A DNA stretch of 64,000 bases from an uncultured Acidobacteriota bacterium (lineage in GTDB: Bacteria; Acidobacteriota; Thermoanaerobaculia; Multivoradales; JAHEKO01). The position numbers were made by a program, and so were the translations under genes. Numbering within the stretch: position 1 is the stretch's first letter; each line of letters opens with the position of its first letter. Under the pieces are notes generated by a model. The model saw nothing but the letters and a program-made list of their open reading frames with translations, was not told the DNA's origin and searched no databases. Of this stretch, positions 5,476 through 13,032 are shown in pieces. The DNA lies in assembly GCA_963713825.1 (NCBI GenBank), contig CAVQNG010000003.1, forward strand, positions 640,001 to 704,000, given 5' to 3'.

Positions 5476-6219
<744 letters not shown>

Positions 6220-6240: not shown

Positions 6241-6633
6241 TCAATCCTGACGAGTGGCGTGGATGAGCGCCTCCATGTGGTCCAGATAGCGCTCGAGCGC
6301 TCGTCGCCCCTTCTGGGTCAGCTCGAACTCGGTCCTCGGATAGCGACCCACGAAGCTCTTCTTGCAGTCCACGTAGCCCGCCTCTTCCAGTTTGCGGGCG
6401 TGCACGCTCAGGTTACCGTCGGTCGTTTGTAACAACTCTTTCAATTCGGAGAAGGTCAGAGAGCTGTTGACGGTCAGGGCGCTCATCATGCCCAATCTCA
6501 CCCGCTCGTAAACGAGCCGGTCGAAATCTCGTGCCGTCGGATCCGCCAGATAGCCGGCCAGGCCCTCGAGGTTCTTCTTGGCCTTCTGCCGATGGTCTTC
6601 TGCCGTGTGCCTAGCCACTTGTCTCTTAGCCAC
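6241..6633 (-). CDS. Winged-helix transcriptional regulator (HTH_34/ArsR-MarR-like)
   Basis: RVRLGMMSAL...LTFSELKELLQTTDGNLSVHARKLEEAGYV...LTQKGRRALERYL. Confidence 0.9.
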   Translation of the reverse strand: MAKRQVARHTAEDHRQKAKKNLEGLAGYLADPTARDFDRLVYERVRLGMMSALTVNSSLTFSELKELLQTTDGNLSVHARKLEEAGYVDCKKSFVGRYPRTEFELTQKGRRALERYLDHMEALIHATRQD

Positions 6634-7240
6634 CGTAGCGCCTCGCGATGATCGCTCCGAACAGGATGTGAAATCCGCCGAACCCGGCCACCAGCAGGAG
6701 GTTGGCCCACGACACCGGCGCCCAGAGAGTCAGCGCGCCGAGTGCCATGAAGCAGAGCCCCATGATGGGGACGGGCCGGACTGAAAAGGTGCCACCGCTG
6801 ACGACACCACTGCCGTAGAGGAGCAACCAGAGCCCCGGGATCCAGCGGGCGGTCGCCGAGTCGCCAAGCGCCACTGTCAGGATGACCGCCGCTACCAGCG
6901 GCGGCGTGACGCTGAACAGGAACCGCCGGCCCACACCCTGCGACAGGCTGACTCCAAGCCCCTTCGCTTTCCGAGCCATGAACCAGCCGCCCACCATCAG
7001 TGCAACGACGGCATCGCCAACCCAGATGGCCAGCCAGTGCTCAGCCAGCGGGGGGGTGGCGGCCAGAAGGCCAGCGATGATCGCCGTGCAACCGATCACG
7101 ATCGCCCCCCAACCGGGAACCGAGGTGAAGGCGGCCGACGACTCCATCGCAAGCCGAATGAAGCGCAGGTTGTCCATGGCATGCGAATGCATGTCCACGG
7201 GTTCCTTTTCTCTCGGCGGTATCGGTGCAGCAGCTCGCAT
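6626..7240 (-). CDS. Conserved membrane protein (about 6 TM), first gene of the wHTH-uppS operon
   Basis: AMDNLRFIR..ME N-terminus, hydrophobic helices and GFGGFHILFG C-terminus; overlaps the regulator start; start codon uncertain. Confidence 0.8.
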   Translation of the reverse strand: MRAAAPIPPREKEPVDMHSHAMDNLRFIRLAMESSAAFTSVPGWGAIVIGCTAIIAGLLAATPPLAEHWLAIWVGDAVVALMVGGWFMARKAKGLGVSLSQGVGRRFLFSVTPPLVAAVILTVALGDSATARWIPGLWLLLYGSGVVSGGTFSVRPVPIMGLCFMALGALTLWAPVSWANLLLVAGFGGFHILFGAIIARRYGG

Positions 7241-7248
7241 GGCGCGCA

Positions 7249-7297
7249 ACGGTAGTGGATCGATTCCGTCTTGTCAAGTACTTTACAACAAAAAGCA
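7249..7297 (-). promoter_or_regulatory. Sigma70-like promoter (TTGACA-17-TACCGT) with an adjacent TRCTTT-N7-AAAGYA palindromic operator
   Basis: tgtcaa at 7272-7277, acggta at 7249-7254, tactttacaacaaaaagca at 7279-7297. Confidence 0.5.
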
Positions 7298-7426
7298 TAG
7301 ATTCGCACCTGTGCATGAATCGATATACGCGCCAGCCTCGTCGGCTCGCCACGAGTCGCTCTCGAACCCGGTCCGTCGATGCTAGGATCGCTGCGTTTCC
7401 TGCCTGCCAGGTACGAAAGGAGAGCG

Positions 7427-9394
7427 GTGGAAGGATCGATCGATTACGAGCAAGTAGGGCTGCGGGTCGGGTTGGAGGTTCACCAGCAGCTCCTCACCGA
7501 CCAGAAGATGTTCTGCCGGTGTCCTGCGGGGCTCTACACAGAGACTCATGACGGCGTCATGTTGCGCCACATGCGCCCCACGCTGTCCGAGTTGGGCGAG
7601 TACGACGGCACGGCTCTGATGGAGTTCAAGACGAAGAAGAACATCGTCTATCTCCTCCACAAGAGCAACGTCTGCACCTATGAGATGGACGACACACCCC
7701 CCTTCATCGTCAATCGGCGGGCCATCGACATCGCCATCGAACAGTGCCTGATGCTGGGCTGCGATGTCGTAGACGAGGTTCACATCGCCCGCAAGCAGTA
7801 CCTCGACGGGTCGATTCCCACCGGCTTTCAGCGTACGGCCATCGTCGGTGTCAATGGCCGTCTGCCCTTTCGCGGTCGCGAGTTGACGGTCATCCAGGTG
7901 AGTGTCGAAGAGGACAGCTGCCGCGAAGTCCAGGACAGGGGACACCTGGCGGTCTGGCGCACCGATCGATTGGGCATGCCCCTGATTGAAACGGTCACTG
8001 GGCCAGAGCTCACGACGCCGGAAGAGGTGGAGGAGGCCATTCTGCTCATCGGGCGCGTCTGCCGCTCCACCGGCCATGTTCGTGTCGGCATGGGGGCTAG
8101 TCGCCAGGATGTCAATGTCTCCGTCAGGGGTGGCCGCAGAGTGGAGATCAAAGGCGTCCCCAAGGCCAGTCATGCCCGCCAATTGGTCCACAGCGAAGCC
8201 GTGCGACAGGTCGAGCTACTCAAACTGCGCGACGAGTTGCATCGTCGCGGTTTCGAGAAGCCCTCCGATATCGTCATGGAACACGTCGACATCACGACTC
8301 TCGTCGCCGACTTCCAACTCGATTCCCTGCAACGGGACAACTGGCAGCGCTTCGTCGAAGCTGAAGAGATGCGACGGGGCATGGAGCTGGCTGAAGGCCC
8401 TTTCAGCGTGCGAGCCATCCGCCTGCCGCGCCTTGCCGGCACGATCGGACGACCCTGTCAACCAGGCAGGACTTTCGCGCACGAGCTGGCGGGGCGCGTC
8501 AGGGTCATCGCCACCCTCGATCAGCCACCGATCCTTGTCGACTCTGACGACTGGCCTGACTATCCGGGCGGCATCGAAGAGTTGGAGGAGATCCGCCAGG
8601 CAGCCGCCTGCACCCCCGAAGATGCGCTGGTGGTGGTGTGGGGCATCGAAAGCGACACCATTACTGCCGCCAAGGAGATCCAGCTGCGCTTCGCGGAGGC
8701 CACCGAGGGCATCCCTCACGAGACGCGCCAGGCGCTCGACGACGGCTGCACCGACTTCGAGCGCATCCTCCCCGGCCCCGACCGCATGTATCCGGACACC
8801 GACAGCCCCGCCCAACTCGTCACTCGCGAGCGCGTACACGGCCTGAAGGTCGATCTACCCGAGCCGCCTTGGCAACGAGAGGAGCGCTACAGCGCCGCCG
8901 GTGTATCGACCCCGACGATCCACTTCCTGATTCGGCGAGGTGGAGCCGGCTTGGTGGATCGGGTCGTCGAGGACACCGGATTCGACCTGCGGCGAGCCTG
9001 CCTCTTCTTTGGTGAGGAGCTCAAGGGCCTGCGACGCTCGAGCCTCGCCGTGGACAAGATCACCGAGAATCGGTGGTGTGATCTCTTCGCGCACCTCCAG
9101 AAGCAGCCGGTGCTCTGGGAAGTCCGCCGACAGCTGGTGGAAGGCCTGGTGTACGAGCCCAAAGCCTCCGTCGATGCAGTGATCGCTGCGGATCACCTCG
9201 GTGAGGAGCCGGCTGGCTGGCAGGCAGACGTGACCAAAGCCATGAAAACCACCGCCGCCCGAGGACTCGAAGGGGACAAGCTCGTCGGCACGGTCATGGG
9301 GCTGGTCCTGAGCACCCTGCGTGGCCGAGTGCCGGCAGTGCGAGTCCTCCACGTGATTGACGAGCTGCAAGCGAGGAAGAACGAGAATGACTGA
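7427..9394 (+). CDS. gatE: Glu-tRNA(Gln) amidotransferase subunit E (archaeal type)
   Basis: GTG start with AAGGAG RBS; IDYEQVGLRVGLEVHQQL, RHMRPTLSELGEYD, DGSIPTGFQRT, EEDS, DRLGMPLIE, RQDVNVS, VEIKGV and RMYPDTD; central insertion domain. Confidence 0.95.
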   Translation: MEGSIDYEQVGLRVGLEVHQQLLTDQKMFCRCPAGLYTETHDGVMLRHMRPTLSELGEYDGTALMEFKTKKNIVYLLHKSNVCTYEMDDTPPFIVNRRAIDIAIEQCLMLGCDVVDEVHIARKQYLDGSIPTGFQRTAIVGVNGRLPFRGRELTVIQVSVEEDSCREVQDRGHLAVWRTDRLGMPLIETVTGPELTTPEEVEEAILLIGRVCRSTGHVRVGMGASRQDVNVSVRGGRRVEIKGVPKASHARQLVHSEAVRQVELLKLRDELHRRGFEKPSDIVMEHVDITTLVADFQLDSLQRDNWQRFVEAEEMRRGMELAEGPFSVRAIRLPRLAGTIGRPCQPGRTFAHELAGRVRVIATLDQPPILVDSDDWPDYPGGIEELEEIRQAAACTPEDALVVVWGIESDTITAAKEIQLRFAEATEGIPHETRQALDDGCTDFERILPGPDRMYPDTDSPAQLVTRERVHGLKVDLPEPPWQREERYSAAGVSTPTIHFLIRRGGAGLVDRVVEDTGFDLRRACLFFGEELKGLRRSSLAVDKITENRWCDLFAHLQKQPVLWEVRRQLVEGLVYEPKASVDAVIAADHLGEEPAGWQADVTKAMKTTAARGLEGDKLVGTVMGLVLSTLRGRVPAVRVLHVIDELQARKNEND

Positions 9395-10781
9395 GACGAA
9401 CGATCCTCTGAAGGGCTATCGTGGCAGAGCGCGGGAACGGCTGCAAGAGTGGGGGGTACGAGTGTGGAGCGAGGTCCGCATCCGCAACGACGAAGACAGC
9501 ACCTTCGAAGGCGTCATCCTGCCTCGCAGCGAGACCTCTGACGATCTGCACGTTGTCCTGAAACTGGCGACAGGCTACAACGTCGGTCTCCATATCGATC
9601 GCATCCGCGAGGTCGAGGAGTTGGGATTCAAGGAGGCCGTCTACAAGATTCCGGAACAGGAGTTTCCTCACAGCCCCGACCTGCCGAAGGTCACCCTTCT
9701 GGGCACCGGCGGCACCATCGCCTCCCGCCTGGATTATCGAACAGGAGCGGTCATTCCGGCTTTCACCCCTGGTGAGCTTTACGGCGCCGTTCCCGAGTTG
9801 GCAGATCTCTGCAACCTGACGACCCGAAAGATCTTCGGGGTCTTCTCCGAGAACATGGGCTGGGAGGAGTACGCCACCCTGGCGCAGGCCATCGGCGACG
9901 AGATCGAGGCCGGCGTCGACGGCGTCGTCATCGGGCACGGCACCGACACCATGGGCCACACCGCCGCTGTGCTCAGTTTCATGGTCCAGAACAGCCCTGT
10001 TCCCATCGTCGTGGTAGGGAGCCAGAGAAGCTCCGATCGCCCCTCGAGCGACGCAGCGCTGAACCTGATCCACGCCGTGCGCTCGGCGGCCTACGGAGAC
10101 ATCGCTGAAGTCCAGATCTGTATGTTCGGTCCGACTTCCGACCAATACGGCTTACTGCATCGCGGCACCCGCTGTCGCAAAATGCACAGCTCGTATCGCA
10201 GCACCTTTCGCACCGTCGGCGATATTCCCCTTTGCCGGGTAAGCGCCACCGACTTCGGCACGCTGACCCATGAGTACCTACCCCGCAATCCTCACAGACG
10301 GGTGAAGATCGACCCTCGCTACGACGATCGTGTAACGATTCTCTACTACTATCCGGGAATGAAGGCCGATGTCGTGGATGCCCTGGTCGAACAGGACTAC
10401 AAGGGCATTGTCATCGCCGGCACCGGTCTCGGCCACGTCAACAAACCGGTCTTTCCGGCGCTCGAGCGAGCCATCGCCAAAGGTGTCCACGTAGTCATGA
10501 CCGTACAGACTCTCTGGGGCTATGCCCAAATGTACGTCTATGACACGGGTCGCGACCTGCTGGACATCGGCGTCGTGCCGCTCGACAACATGCTGCCGGA
10601 AACGGCACTCATGAAGCTGGGGTGGGTGCTGGGTCATACCCACGATCACGACGAGGTGCGGGAGATGATGCGGCACTCCTACAGCCATGAAATCACCGAA
10701 CGGGAACCCCACAATGGGTATCTCATCCTGCAGGGAGGCCTCCCCGAGACCGAGGAATACATCCTCAGTCAGTGGAAGTAG
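9387..10781 (+). CDS. gatD: Glu-tRNA(Gln) amidotransferase subunit D (asparaginase-like glutaminase)
   Basis: GatD N-terminal domain (FEGVILPR...VLKLATGYNVG), TGGTIASRLDYRTGAV, HGTDTM, GSQRSSDRPSSD, RKMHSSYR, GTGLGHV; overlaps the gatE stop. Confidence 0.95.
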   Translation: MTETNDPLKGYRGRARERLQEWGVRVWSEVRIRNDEDSTFEGVILPRSETSDDLHVVLKLATGYNVGLHIDRIREVEELGFKEAVYKIPEQEFPHSPDLPKVTLLGTGGTIASRLDYRTGAVIPAFTPGELYGAVPELADLCNLTTRKIFGVFSENMGWEEYATLAQAIGDEIEAGVDGVVIGHGTDTMGHTAAVLSFMVQNSPVPIVVVGSQRSSDRPSSDAALNLIHAVRSAAYGDIAEVQICMFGPTSDQYGLLHRGTRCRKMHSSYRSTFRTVGDIPLCRVSATDFGTLTHEYLPRNPHRRVKIDPRYDDRVTILYYYPGMKADVVDALVEQDYKGIVIAGTGLGHVNKPVFPALERAIAKGVHVVMTVQTLWGYAQMYVYDTGRDLLDIGVVPLDNMLPETALMKLGWVLGHTHDHDEVREMMRHSYSHEITEREPHNGYLILQGGLPETEEYILSQWK

Positions 10782-10797
10782 GAATTTTCCTCAGAAC

Positions 10798-13032
10798 TCA
10801 ATCTTGGATCGTGAACTTTGTGGTGCGGGTCTGGGCGGTGTCATTTCCCGGCCCGTTAGCCCTGACTTCGAGTCGGTAGTCACCCGCTTCCAACCCTTGC
10901 GTCGAGAAGGTGCCGGGAATCCACCGAGTGCCACCGAAACCGGTTGGCAGGGATTCGTGCCAGCGCACCTCTGGCGTCTCGACCGGCTCGCCGCCCAGAG
11001 TCAGGATCCGGGCCTCGATACCTGGGCGTACGTTTCCCGAGGTCAAAACCGGTACCAGAATCGAGGCCTGAGTGCCGGTTCCCAGCGCCGGGCTCACCCA
11101 GGGCATGAACCGGCTCTCACCAGCAACCAGGAGATCGCCGCTCCCGGCGCTCTGGGTTGAAGGGTCCGTCACCATGAGCCACTGTCCAGAGTCGTCGACA
11201 AACAAGGGGGCGCCAACATGAAGCGCCAGCTCTGGCGCCTCGGGGACCAACAACCGGGTCGTCGATAACGAAACTTCGCCACTCCTCAGGTTGCGAACCA
11301 TGACTCGGAGCTGGTAATCACCCGGAGGCAAGTCGAGCTCGCCGAAAAACCGCACTCCTCCATTGCCCAGGTGCTTCTCCAACTCCCCCAGGTCGAGCTG
11401 AAAACCACTGGCGAAGAAGCCCTGTACTTTCCAGTCCCCGTCGATGGCAAAAACCTGGATCTCGAGAGCCGACTTGTCTTTGCTCCGCTTGCGCTCCGGC
11501 GAAAGGTCTTCCCATGGCAGATCCACCAGCACTGGCACACGCCAGCGACCGTCCTCCAGCACCAAGGGCTCAGCGAGCGTGGCAATCTGCAGCTCCTCGA
11601 CCTCTTCGGCGGTCAGCACCATCTCGGCGGCATCGACGCGCCACTCCGACAATAATCGGTCCCGAGTCGGTTCGGGTGCATAGTAGCCCGGCCGATGAAA
11701 AATCTTGGCGCGGCGCAGGGGGGTCGCGAGCCGCACCTCGATCTCGTGATACTGCCCATCCCATTCCAGGTCCTGCGGCTGAAAGCTCAAGACGTAGCTC
11801 GCCCCGGTTCGCCGCAGCACCCGTGCTGTGGCCTGGCTGAGGTCGTTGAAGTTCTCCTGCAGCTCACCCCCTGTCTCCTTGGCCAGGTAGAGCAAGGAAT
11901 CGGCAGAGTAACCTCGCCGCTGTCGGGCCTCGGGAATCCCGCTCACATCCACGGCATAGACAGTCCAGCCGCTATTGCGAATGCCGCGGAGCAGCTCCTG
12001 AAGGTAGCCGAGACCCAGGGCGTCCCTCAAGAGACTGTTGTCGAAGCCCTCGGACAAGAGAACGAACTGCTTCTCGCCCGTGATCTCTCTCAGTAGCGTG
12101 AAGAGCTCCGCCAGAGACCGAGACATCGCTCGCAGATTGCTCATGTCGGGCCCACCAGCAAGCTGCGGCGCCAGGTCGATTGGCTTCTGCGCGGCAATCT
12201 GAACCCATCGGACCTCTTTCTTGTAGGCACCGACTGACCCGCCCTGCTCCCCCGCGCCCGGGACCTCCGGGCCGCCACTCGTCGGCACGGCGATGGCTAC
12301 GGAGGGACTCACCAGGGCCAGAGCCGCCGTCGCACCGAGCTCCTCGGTCAGGCGTTGAAAGACCTGCACCGAAGAATCCGCAGCCCCGTCGTTGGCGCCG
12401 AAGCGAAGCTGATTCAGGTGCTCGATGATCGAGCGCTGTGCCTGTCGATCTGCTTCCAGGATCGCTCCGACCAGATCGAGGGCGGCCGATAGCTCCTCCG
12501 GTTCGTTGGTAAAGCCGATCAGAAGAGTCAGACCCGAGAGCTTGCCATAGGTGGCGACTGCCACCCGATCCATGGGATGAAGCTGGCTCGAGGCCATTTT
12601 CCGGACCGCCTTCAGGGAACGCGCGAGATACTGCCGGCGAGTGCTGCTGAAATCGAAGAGGACCAAGAGGCGGCGACCTGCCGCCCGAGTCTCCAGAGGC
12701 TCGCTTGTCGGCGGCAGGCTCTCGAACCGAGCCAGCACCTGTGACTCGAAGGCCGTGATCTCCTGCAACTCTCCCTGGTCGTAGATCTCGAAGTCGTCCT
12801 TCGTCAGCCCGGCGATCGGCTCACCCTTGACGAGAACTCGGACCGGAACCTCCACAACCGTCACTTCAAGTGTTTCGGAGTACTGATCCGAGGACAGAGG
12901 TGAATCCTCAGGGGTCACCTGGGCGTCGAGCAGAGCGGGCAACACCCCGGCTGAGATGCAAAGTGCACCGAGTCCTATCGTGACCACATCTCTCCACCTA
13001 GATCCCATATCAGCTGGCTTCATGCAATCCAT
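10798..13032 (-). CDS. Acidobacterial VWA-related domain protein (secreted)
   Basis: VVEVPVRVLVKGEPIAGLTKDDFEIYDQG, K..VLLSEGF, LAKETGG, YVLSFQP..DGQYHEIEVRL and HRPGYYAP. Confidence 0.85.
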   Translation of the reverse strand: MDCMKPADMGSRWRDVVTIGLGALCISAGVLPALLDAQVTPEDSPLSSDQYSETLEVTVVEVPVRVLVKGEPIAGLTKDDFEIYDQGELQEITAFESQVLARFESLPPTSEPLETRAAGRRLLVLFDFSSTRRQYLARSLKAVRKMASSQLHPMDRVAVATYGKLSGLTLLIGFTNEPEELSAALDLVGAILEADRQAQRSIIEHLNQLRFGANDGAADSSVQVFQRLTEELGATAALALVSPSVAIAVPTSGGPEVPGAGEQGGSVGAYKKEVRWVQIAAQKPIDLAPQLAGGPDMSNLRAMSRSLAELFTLLREITGEKQFVLLSEGFDNSLLRDALGLGYLQELLRGIRNSGWTVYAVDVSGIPEARQRRGYSADSLLYLAKETGGELQENFNDLSQATARVLRRTGASYVLSFQPQDLEWDGQYHEIEVRLATPLRRAKIFHRPGYYAPEPTRDRLLSEWRVDAAEMVLTAEEVEELQIATLAEPLVLEDGRWRVPVLVDLPWEDLSPERKRSKDKSALEIQVFAIDGDWKVQGFFASGFQLDLGELEKHLGNGGVRFFGELDLPPGDYQLRVMVRNLRSGEVSLSTTRLLVPEAPELALHVGAPLFVDDSGQWLMVTDPSTQSAGSGDLLVAGESRFMPWVSPALGTGTQASILVPVLTSGNVRPGIEARILTLGGEPVETPEVRWHESLPTGFGGTRWIPGTFSTQGLEAGDYRLEVRANGPGNDTAQTRTTKFTIQD

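Follow-up and report, generated by a model that had tools for sequence, protein, structure and literature searches.

The stretch of DNA analysed here (hereafter the window) is the 64-kb segment C3:640001-704000 of the Acidobacteriota assembly G000, and it encodes a complete GatDE, a two-subunit tRNA-dependent amidotransferase, in two intact and overlapping genes, gatE and gatD. Judged from its sequence, the first protein is a true GatE and not a GatB. The window copy is not a lone transfer; our trees place it in a multi-phylum bacterial crown clade that lies within a larger and diverse bacterial GatE clade. Our favoured reading, held with about even confidence, is that the cassette encodes a working Glu-tRNA(Gln) amidotransferase that was re-tuned to the U1-A72 pair of bacterial tRNA-Gln and that provides an accessory route beside glutaminyl-tRNA synthetase (GlnRS).

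In the available text of several papers GatDE is termed an 'archaeal signature protein' or is said to occur 'only in archaea' or 'exclusively in archaea' (PMC2330236, PMC8007984, PMC9499178, PMC2811023). The accessible literature builds several ideas on this restriction: the co-evolution of GatDE with archaeal tRNA-Gln, an account of the absence of GlnRS from archaea, and the question of whether both amidotransferases were carried by the last universal common ancestor. With a bacterial GatDE lineage that is large, old, actively exchanged and found beside GlnRS, those ideas become newly testable. It also raises the questions of what a change of GatE from A1-U72 to U1-A72 recognition required, should tRNA-Gln be its substrate, why an amidotransferase is retained alongside both direct synthetases, and whether GatDE makes it easier for bacteria to lose GatCAB. 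Automatic annotation of metagenome-assembled genomes (MAGs) already assigns these gene names, and no paper that describes or tests a bacterial GatDE was found among the main texts of open papers and preprints.

Identity and catalytic apparatus of GatE and GatD

The GatE protein scored 462.3 bits against NF003107 (cut-off 456) and 401.9 bits against TIGR00134 (cut-off 319.55), and the GatB models gave it 58-120 bits against cut-offs of 315-680. GatD reached 494.7 bits with TIGR02153 (cut-off 324) and 492.2 bits with NF003217 (cut-off 310). In Pfam, GatB_N was found on GatE, and GatD carries GatD_N (PF18195) together with the N- and C-terminal asparaginase domains (PF00710 and PF17763), each above its gathering score. 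An earlier note, made from the DNA letters of the window, had called the pair a true GatDE rather than a GatB-type enzyme, and this is upheld by the NCBIfam scores and by a GatB-rooted tree in which the protein groups with GatE, apart from five GatB sequences (support 100).

Every catalytic motif listed in that note is present. In GatE these are EVHQQ (residues 17-21), EEDS (161-164) and LIE (186-188), and in GatD they are TGGT (107-110), HGTDT (184-188) and RKMH (264-267). The GatD motifs TGGT, HGTDT, SDRPSSDA and RKMH align with those of 1zq1_A, and we take them to supply the Thr nucleophile and the Thr-Lys-Asp triad of the asparaginase fold. For GatE, His15, Glu157 and Glu184 of the Methanothermobacter thermautotrophicus protein are given as Mg2+ ligands in the available part of PMC2330236. 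The corresponding triad His19/Glu161/Glu188 is invariant in all 69 aligned bacterial and archaeal GatE sequences, where the invariant positions number 52 with the Mg2+ ligands included.

The likeness extends over the whole of both proteins. GatE aligns end to end with 1zq1_C and 2d6f_C from the solved archaeal GatDE structures, and GatD aligns end to end with the solved chains as well (1zq1_A at 408.8 bits). An AlphaFold2 model of GatE, built on the 69-sequence alignment, had a mean confidence (pLDDT) of 94.5, and a Foldseek search of the PDB with this model returned 1zq1_C and 2d6f_C/D at the top, with target TM scores of 0.80-0.82, followed by GatB chains. The insertion resembling aspartyl-tRNA synthetase (AspRS), which is absent from GatB, is present here: the GatB_N match is stretched over residues 29-484 for a 277-position model, the inserted part aligns with 1zq1_C and 2d6f_C, and the AlphaFold2 model gives weak AspRS matches. 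The C-terminal tail, which in archaeal GatE is YqeY-like and reads the D-loop of the tRNA, is the part in which Pfam PF02637 was undetected, both here and in most crown relatives. The PDB and NCBIfam alignments still extend to the C-terminus, the tail is modelled as confident helices, and the stretch LRGRVP is common to this tail and to archaeal tails. The earlier crystal structures left the GatE tail unresolved, according to the part of PMC2811023 that is available.

Both genes are under strong purifying selection. The ratio of nonsynonymous to synonymous substitution rates (dN/dS) against the two nearest relatives was 0.10-0.12 for gatE and 0.04 for gatD.

Authenticity of the cassette

The earlier note had described intact, overlapping gatE and gatD genes with a Shine-Dalgarno (SD) sequence, a start codon, coordinates and a host-like GC content, and all of these were recovered from the open reading frames (ORFs), the AAGGAG motif and the base composition (0.623 for the cassette against 0.617 for the contig). 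A reading in which archaeal DNA was mis-binned or mis-joined into a bacterial assembly, or in which the cassette is a decaying passenger, is highly improbable, and no point was found that supports it. The assembly comprises 5.42 Mb, with a completeness of 96% and a contamination of 0.27%, and the cassette is found 647 kb into one of its contigs, which measures 1.9 Mb. The genes on either side are bacterial and encode an undecaprenyl-diphosphate synthase, a winged-helix regulator, a membrane protein and large proteins with CarboxypepD_reg repeats. The same neighbouring genes (upstream 5476-6219, 6241-6633 and 6626-7249; downstream 10798-13032) surround the cassette in four other assemblies (loci L034, L035, L038 and L039), and the nearest named records are MAGs labelled Thermoanaerobaculia or Acidobacteriota with a GatE identity of 83-87%. 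Single-contig genomes carry GatE too (G226, G259 and G468). The GatE protein falls in a bacterial clade and is 29-36% identical to the aligned archaeal sequences, and the low dN/dS values speak against decay.

Other sequencing runs agree with the assembly. At least 14 DNA runs from 10 studies, one of which may be the window's own source, contain half or more of the sampled window words; every organism-labelled run among them bears the label of a sediment or salt-marsh metagenome, and four are unlabelled. The borders are bridged by contigs of run X1, which span 7112-7515 and 9134-9632 with 0 differences, and by a contig of run X2, which spans 10577-10848 with 21 differences. A joint in one run X2 contig that skips 7650-7790, with a side of 26 letters, was set aside as probably belonging to another organism. 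A chimera at the borders of the operon, which the earlier note had named as a danger, is thus excluded for practical purposes. Contigs from RNA libraries match gatE at 7801-8146 and gatD at 10271-10420 and 10511-10660 with 0-2 differences; they cover 6 and 4 of 30 bins in libraries that may contain DNA, and they give a weak hint that the cassette is transcribed.

Phylogeny and distribution

GatE-like proteins were represented by 614 cluster representatives at E <= 1e-30. A FastTree phylogeny was built from 151 rows, namely the window protein, 43 of 74 full-length locus proteins (every third Acidobacteriota row and all of the others) and 107 representatives of 590-720 aa. The tree fell into two halves (support 99). 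The clusters of one half carry the archaeal names Heimdallarchaeota, Thermoprotei and Methanofastidiosum. The other half contains a crown clade of 45 rows (support 100, stem 0.46) that includes the window and all named bacterial loci and that sits within a set of representatives with 43-56% identity to the query. A profile built from 30 of these intermediates finds MAG proteins from Calditrichia, KSB1, Clostridiales, Aminicenantes, Latescibacteria, Krumholzibacteria and Desulfaltia; one intermediate representative is named candidate division CSSED10-310, and most of the profile matches are unnamed. As far as the names go, the intermediate GatE representatives are bacterial too.

A second tree was calculated with IQ-TREE (LG+C20 with posterior mean site frequencies; branch support by SH-aLRT only) from 15 crown, 17 other bacterial and 17 archaeal GatE sequences, with five GatB sequences as the root. 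All 32 bacterial GatE rows formed one clade (support 100), sister to a representative of a Heimdallarchaeota cluster (support 96) and inside the archaeal sequences; this was a quick search with a long outgroup branch, and its 17 archaeal rows came from the 150 representatives most like the query. The position of bacterial GatE within archaeal GatE fits the old inter-domain transfer put forward in the earlier note. That part of the proposal is supported, but the window copy is not isolated and belongs to a large clade that is spreading among phyla. The phylogeny of both subunits envisaged there was carried out for GatE, which was separated from GatB and proved to have a widespread bacterial clade. 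Within the crown, Eisenbacteria branch with Ignavibacteria, Planctomycetota with Myxococcota, and a row labelled Holophagae with a Thermoanaerobaculia row; given this mixture of phyla, the cassette is one that bacteria exchange.

Among 41 relatives (G000 included), GatE was above cut-off in eight: the six genomes of the genus without exception and, outside it, a further genus of the same family and a further family of the same order. The protein database holds more than 120 clusters at 64-88% GatE identity, and the few source names among them are Acidobacteriota, Vicinamibacterales, Candidatus Eisenbacteria and Pseudomonadota MAGs. In a collection with one genome per species, 377 of 467 pattern-matching stretches encode a GatE relative. 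The best 80 of these 377 are 61-87% identical to the window protein, all come from MAGs, and are labelled Thermoanaerobaculia, Holophagae, Vicinamibacterales, Sulfomarinibacteraceae, Myxococcota/Deltaproteobacteria, Planctomycetota, Gammaproteobacteria (Woeseiaceae and Chromatiales), Ignavibacteria, Eisenbacteria, Fermentibacteria and Riflebacteria. In an even sample of Acidobacteriota, GatE was found in 65 of 401 genomes and 43 of 227 genera, the single-contig genomes included. These tallies, and those of GatB and GlnRS in the same sample, include three genomes flagged as unpublished (G113, G138 and G239), none of which has GatE and none of which is used for any other claim.

The two genes travel together. 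In 77 of 81 loci gatD is the next gene after gatE, and the remaining four loci end at a contig edge. GatD identity is 74-82% across loci with different phylum labels, and 66-69% at two loci in which about 80 gatD residues precede the contig end. Besides gatD, no neighbouring family occurs in more than 8 of the 81 loci, and the loci that share one belong to close relatives; a filter on GC content at third codon positions was used in this count against long antisense ORFs. Two different GatE copies occur in one assembly in three cases (L036 and L088, 87% and 76% identical to the window protein; L077 and L090, 64% and 62%; and two contigs of G005), which may reflect bins of mixed strains or genuine paralogs.

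Synthetases, amidotransferases and tRNAs

The host encodes a full-length GlnRS that scored 781.5 bits on the equivalog model (cut-off 425.8). Asparaginyl-tRNA synthetase (AsnRS; 477.2 bits), the asparagine synthetase AsnB (423.8 bits) and glutamine synthetase (462.8 bits) are present as well. An AsnA-like gene (C3:1350941-1351912) scored 291.9 bits, just below the cut-off of 292.8; its frame of 571 aa is far longer than the 330-position model. With regard to GatCAB, the only gatB match in the host genome is gatE itself, gatA has no match above cut-off (the best is an amidase at 187.7 bits), and gatC has no match. With GlnRS, AsnRS, AsnB and glutamine synthetase all present, there is no visible need for an amidotransferase in the synthesis of Gln-tRNA, Asn-tRNA or the free amides. 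A biosynthetic need for Gln or Asn was considered and rejected on account of glutamine synthetase, AsnB and the AsnA-like gene. The earlier note had left the inventory of gatCAB, glnS and gltX to be made; with the two direct synthetases, AsnB and one glutamyl-tRNA synthetase (GluRS) present and GatCAB absent, the enzyme is dispensable by inventory and the question of its function is sharpened.

The single GluRS is bacterial in type and glnS follows its gene directly. The two genes, gltX and glnS, adjoin on one strand at C3:122692-126003, with a tRNA-Gln(CUG) gene about 3.5 kb upstream (C3:119078-119151). The same adjacency is seen in many Acidobacteriota with or without GatE (for example G017, G106, G134, G140, G147, G168, G319 and G443).

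Both host tRNA-Gln genes (UUG and CUG) have a U1-A72 pair and the discriminator base G73, the pair that the earlier note had given as typical of bacterial tRNA-Gln. Both also read U1, G2, G3, which together with G73 we take to be the identity set of Escherichia coli GlnRS. By eye, the first acceptor pair of tRNA-Glu(CUC) at C3:1145266-1145341 is apparently G1-U72, and that of tRNA-Glu(UUC) is G1-C72; the G1-U72 pair could matter for an amidotransferase that has to tell tRNA-Glu from tRNA-Gln. A 93-nt ARAGORN call of 'tRNA-Glu(CTC)' at C14:13574-13666 does not look like an ordinary tRNA and is probably a false positive.

Co-occurrence was examined in 50 genomes, chosen from 80 named loci for diversity and long contigs. 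GlnRS was above cut-off in 45 of them and present as contig-end fragments in two more, and GatB was found in 25. Thus 23 genomes have GlnRS and GatB, 24 have GlnRS only, two (both Ignavibacteria) have GatB only and one has neither. The genome with neither is G074, a crown-clade MAG labelled Fermentibacteria, in which AsnRS was detected and GlnRS, GatB and GatA were not found; here GatDE would possibly be the sole route to Gln-tRNA(Gln). A BLAST search of G074 with the host tRNA-Gln gave no match.

Among the 401 Acidobacteriota genomes, GatB occurs in 306 and GlnRS in 280. From a cross-reading of the lists, the 65 GatE holders comprise 42 with GlnRS only, 19 with GlnRS and GatB, four with GatB only (G102, G120 and G136 of one family, and G150) and none with neither, so that GlnRS accompanies GatE in 61 of 65. 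AsnRS is present in all 42 holders that lack GatB and likewise in the four that lack GlnRS. Of the 95 genomes that lack GatB, 42 have GatE; of the 306 that have GatB, 23 do. Such an enrichment where GatB is missing is expected of an enzyme that takes over the task of the Glu-tRNA(Gln) amidotransferase. The three genomes G102, G120 and G136 combine GatDE, GatCAB, AsnRS and two full-length GluRS copies in the absence of GlnRS; with two amidotransferases side by side, these bacteria resemble archaea.

tRNA recognition

Archaeal GatDE recognises the A1-U72 pair and the D-loop of tRNA-Gln, as stated in the available text of PMC2330236 and PMC9499178. In the accessible part of PMC2811023, bacterial GatB is described as reading U1-A72 through a 3-10 turn, in place of which GatE has a short, conserved and positively charged loop, and the GXXAXGX motif of the GatE tail is described as occupying the place of a Lys-rich motif in GatB. 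The cradle loop reads GHVRVG in 13 of the 15 crown rows, which carry different phylum or class labels. Most of the 17 archaeal rows have GKVKRG there, and most of the 17 other bacterial rows have GKVR(R/T)G. GXXAXGX is not kept: the window has GDKLVGT where 1zq1_C has GMGAMGL (mapped by eye), and the position is Arg-rich in most bacterial rows.

The earlier note had taken the divergent C-terminal tail as a sign of changed specificity, but the sign is a weak one. Across phyla within the crown, the two cradle parts have identities of 0.86 and 0.78, the insertion and the helical part each have 0.56, and the tail has 0.32. Among the bacterial intermediates, too, no part is less conserved than the tail (0.20), and in archaea it is one of the least conserved (0.33). 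Since it is poorly conserved in every GatE group, its divergence here is not special. The near-invariant change in the cradle loop, which is predicted to lie beside the first base pair, is a better lead.

The tRNA side gives no indication of a change. In four GatE-bearing genomes, six of seven tRNA-Gln genes have U1-A72 and none has A1-U72; the seventh, from a 14-tRNA array in G259, was read as C1/U72 with uncertain boundaries. A relative that lacks GatE, G019, has a tRNA-Gln 96% identical to that of the host. If tRNA-Gln is the substrate, then it is the enzyme that would have adapted and not the tRNA, and the re-tuned tRNA-Gln offered as one possibility in the earlier note is not seen.

Proposed function and alternatives

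The data establish the family of both proteins, the integrity of the catalytic apparatus, purifying selection, the gene content of the host and the range of the cassette; which substrate the enzyme uses, that it accepts U1-A72 and what it does for the cell we infer as follows. GatD would free ammonia from Gln or Asn, and GatE would phosphorylate the side-chain carboxyl of the glutamate on tRNA-Gln and then amidate it to give Gln-tRNA(Gln). The enzyme would accept the ordinary bacterial U1-A72 tRNA-Gln, with the adaptation on the enzyme side. Most likely, it would convert Glu-tRNA(Gln) formed by a GluRS that does not discriminate fully, as a fidelity or back-up route, and this accessory role may either have opened the way to the loss of GatCAB or have come after it. 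A working tRNA-dependent amidotransferase is indicated by the catalytic machinery, by the strong selection and by the fact that the two genes are always paired. The enrichment in genomes without GatCAB, together with G074 in which no other route was found, points to the classical Glu-tRNA(Gln) reaction. Because GlnRS is present the route would be an accessory and not the main one, and the constant company of GlnRS and the 53 genomes that lack both GatB and GatE are consistent with this.

Several observations weigh against such a function. Nothing in the host inventory of GlnRS, AsnRS, AsnB and glutamine synthetase requires GatDE. All 65 GatE-bearing Acidobacteriota also have GlnRS or GatB, and the 42 without GatB all have AsnRS; 53 of the 95 genomes without GatB in the phylum sample do without GatE as well. 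The association of GatE with missing GatB is a pattern and not a statistical test, as kin are not independent, and G074 is a MAG of unknown completeness. The altered loop beside the 1-72 pair (GHVRVG against archaeal GKVKRG) and the lost GXXAXGX motif would fit a different substrate too. Additionally, the signature of a non-discriminating GluRS was not found in a comparison of 41 GluRS sequences from single-GluRS genomes (18 with GatE only, 13 without an amidotransferase and 10 with GatB but no GlnRS; G113 was left out): no column separated the classes, phylogeny being a confounder. Where the set with GatB only differed, the set with GatE only resembled the one without an amidotransferase, and relatives with and without GatE share the same GluRS subtypes.

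Two other candidate links to GluRS were dropped. A discriminating residue, Arg358 of the Thermus enzyme, was abandoned as a marker when the Arg presumed to correspond to it was also found in the enzymes of Thermotoga maritima and Mycobacterium tuberculosis, organisms that are not known to have GlnRS. A second GluRS tied to GatE was not supported either, as each class includes some genomes with two full-length copies.

A changed substrate or a new role, above all for the crown GatDE, is somewhat unlikely in our view. The enzyme might act on Asp-tRNA(Asn), on Glu carried by another tRNA or on an aminoacyl-tRNA with a non-translational fate, or it might be a tRNA-gated asparaginase or glutaminase. 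Its dispensability by inventory in 65 of 65 Acidobacteriota holders and 49 of 50 multi-phylum genomes would be explained in this way, as would the long stem to the crown clade (0.41-0.46 changes per site), the fixation of the loop beside the 1-72 pair in a new form, the loss of GXXAXGX and the movement of the cassette among phyla as a self-contained unit. The catalytic pocket is, however, invariant with that of archaeal GatE, and the AspRS-like insertion, modelled to clash with class II AspRS in the available part of PMC2330236, is retained. Asn can be formed without GatDE where AsnRS and AsnB are present, and no conserved synthetase paralog, tRNA gene or biosynthetic cluster was found beside the cassette, nor any tRNA gene in the 64-kb window. 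It is improbable that GatDE is instead the main route to Gln-tRNA(Gln) while the annotated GlnRS does something else or serves one isoacceptor only. The gene content of G074 would fit, but the host GlnRS is full length and far above its cut-off, both tRNA-Gln genes have the bases that we take to be the E. coli GlnRS identity set, and relatives without any amidotransferase have near-identical tRNA-Gln and GlnRS.

A bolder reading can be put forward tentatively, as a possibility that we rate well below even. Bacterial GatDE, and above all that of the crown, may not be essential for translation and may instead be an accessory module that moves horizontally and has an as yet undescribed role, such as the rescue of mischarged Glu-tRNA(Gln) or fidelity in its handling, the bypass of a starved or inhibited GlnRS, or the amidation of another aminoacyl-tRNA, and the whole lineage may descend from one ancient transfer from an Asgard-related archaeon. 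If this is true, GatDE would no longer be an archaeal signature, and bacteria would have a third organisation of Gln-tRNA formation.

Relation to known amidotransferases

The cassette shares with archaeal GatDE (M. thermautotrophicus, 2D6F; Pyrococcus abyssi, 1ZQ1) the same two subunits, Mg2+ ligands and asparaginase motifs, and the same domain order: cradle, AspRS-like insertion, helical part and tail in GatE, and an N-domain followed by a type I asparaginase in GatD. It differs in that GatE identity is only 33-35%, the host is a bacterium with GlnRS, the tRNA-Gln has U1-A72 rather than A1-U72, the loop is GHVRVG and not GKVKRG, and GXXAXGX of the tail is not retained. Moreover, it is here an overlapping two-gene cassette that has been exchanged across phyla and is not the sole route to Gln-tRNA(Gln). 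The archaeal indirect pathway consists of a non-discriminating GluRS and GatDE only, whereas this host has GlnRS, as do 61 of 65 and 47 of 50 GatE-bearing genomes in the two samples.

With GatCAB the enzyme shares its chemistry, the phosphorylation and amidation of tRNA-borne Glu or Asp, and GatE is a paralog of GatB; U1-A72 is the pair that GatCAB reads and that this GatDE would also have to accept (available parts of PMC2330236 and PMC2811023). In contrast to GatCAB, the glutaminase is the asparaginase-type GatD and not the amidase GatA, there is no GatC, and GatCAB itself is absent from the genome. An amidotransferase beside both direct synthetases is likewise found in Bdellovibrio, Deinococcus and Thermus, which have GatCAB (accessible text of PMC4206432). 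The present case is unlike these in that the enzyme is GatDE, and no biosynthetic need for it is visible where AsnB, an AsnA-like gene and glutamine synthetase are present. In Bdellovibrio, Deinococcus and Thermus the amidotransferase supplies asparagine biosynthesis.

Layout of the cassette and neighbouring genes

The positions of the two genes and of their main elements are given in Table 1. The genes overlap by 8 nt, ATGACTGA, so that the ATG of gatD lies within the final codons of gatE. The GTG start gives GatE the same length as in the close relatives P0002-P0005. An alternative in-frame ATG at 7379 (671 aa) was rejected, as it has no SD and the relatives begin at the GTG. No promoter-like or terminator-like sites were found in 7000-11200.

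Table 1. Features of the gatE-gatD cassette (positions in the window)
Feature	Position	Strand	Remarks
SD-like AAGGAG	7417..7422	+	4 nt 5' of the gatE GTG; read from the sequence
gatE, 655 aa	7427..9394	+	GTG start, TGA stop 9392-9394; tRNA-dependent kinase/amidotransferase subunit
GatE His19	7481..7483	+	M. thermautotrophicus His15 (Mg2+ ligand); alignment to 2d6f_C
GatE Glu161	7907..7909	+	M. thermautotrophicus Glu157 (Mg2+ ligand); alignment to 2d6f_C
GatE Glu188	7988..7990	+	M. thermautotrophicus Glu184 (Mg2+ ligand); alignment to 2d6f_C
GatE cradle loop GHVRVG	8072..8089	+	replaces the 3-10 turn of GatB; mapped by eye
GatE C-terminal tail	9149..9391	+	YqeY-like region in archaeal GatE; contains conserved LRGRVP 9317-9334
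gatD, 464 aa	9387..10781	+	ATG start 9387; asparaginase-type glutaminase subunit
GatD motifs	TGGT 9705-9716; HGTDT 9936-9950; RKMH 10176-10187	+	

Two of the flanking genes encode proteins with no Pfam match at E <= 1e-5, namely a 744-aa protein downstream of gatD (10798-13032, minus strand) and a 207-aa membrane protein upstream of gatE (6626-7249, minus strand). Both are kept beside the cassette in close relatives only. Elsewhere, the locus L165 (G259:C1:2942270-2945339) of a single-contig GatE-bearing genome holds 14 tRNA genes in about 1.6 kb and may be a tRNA array of a mobile element.

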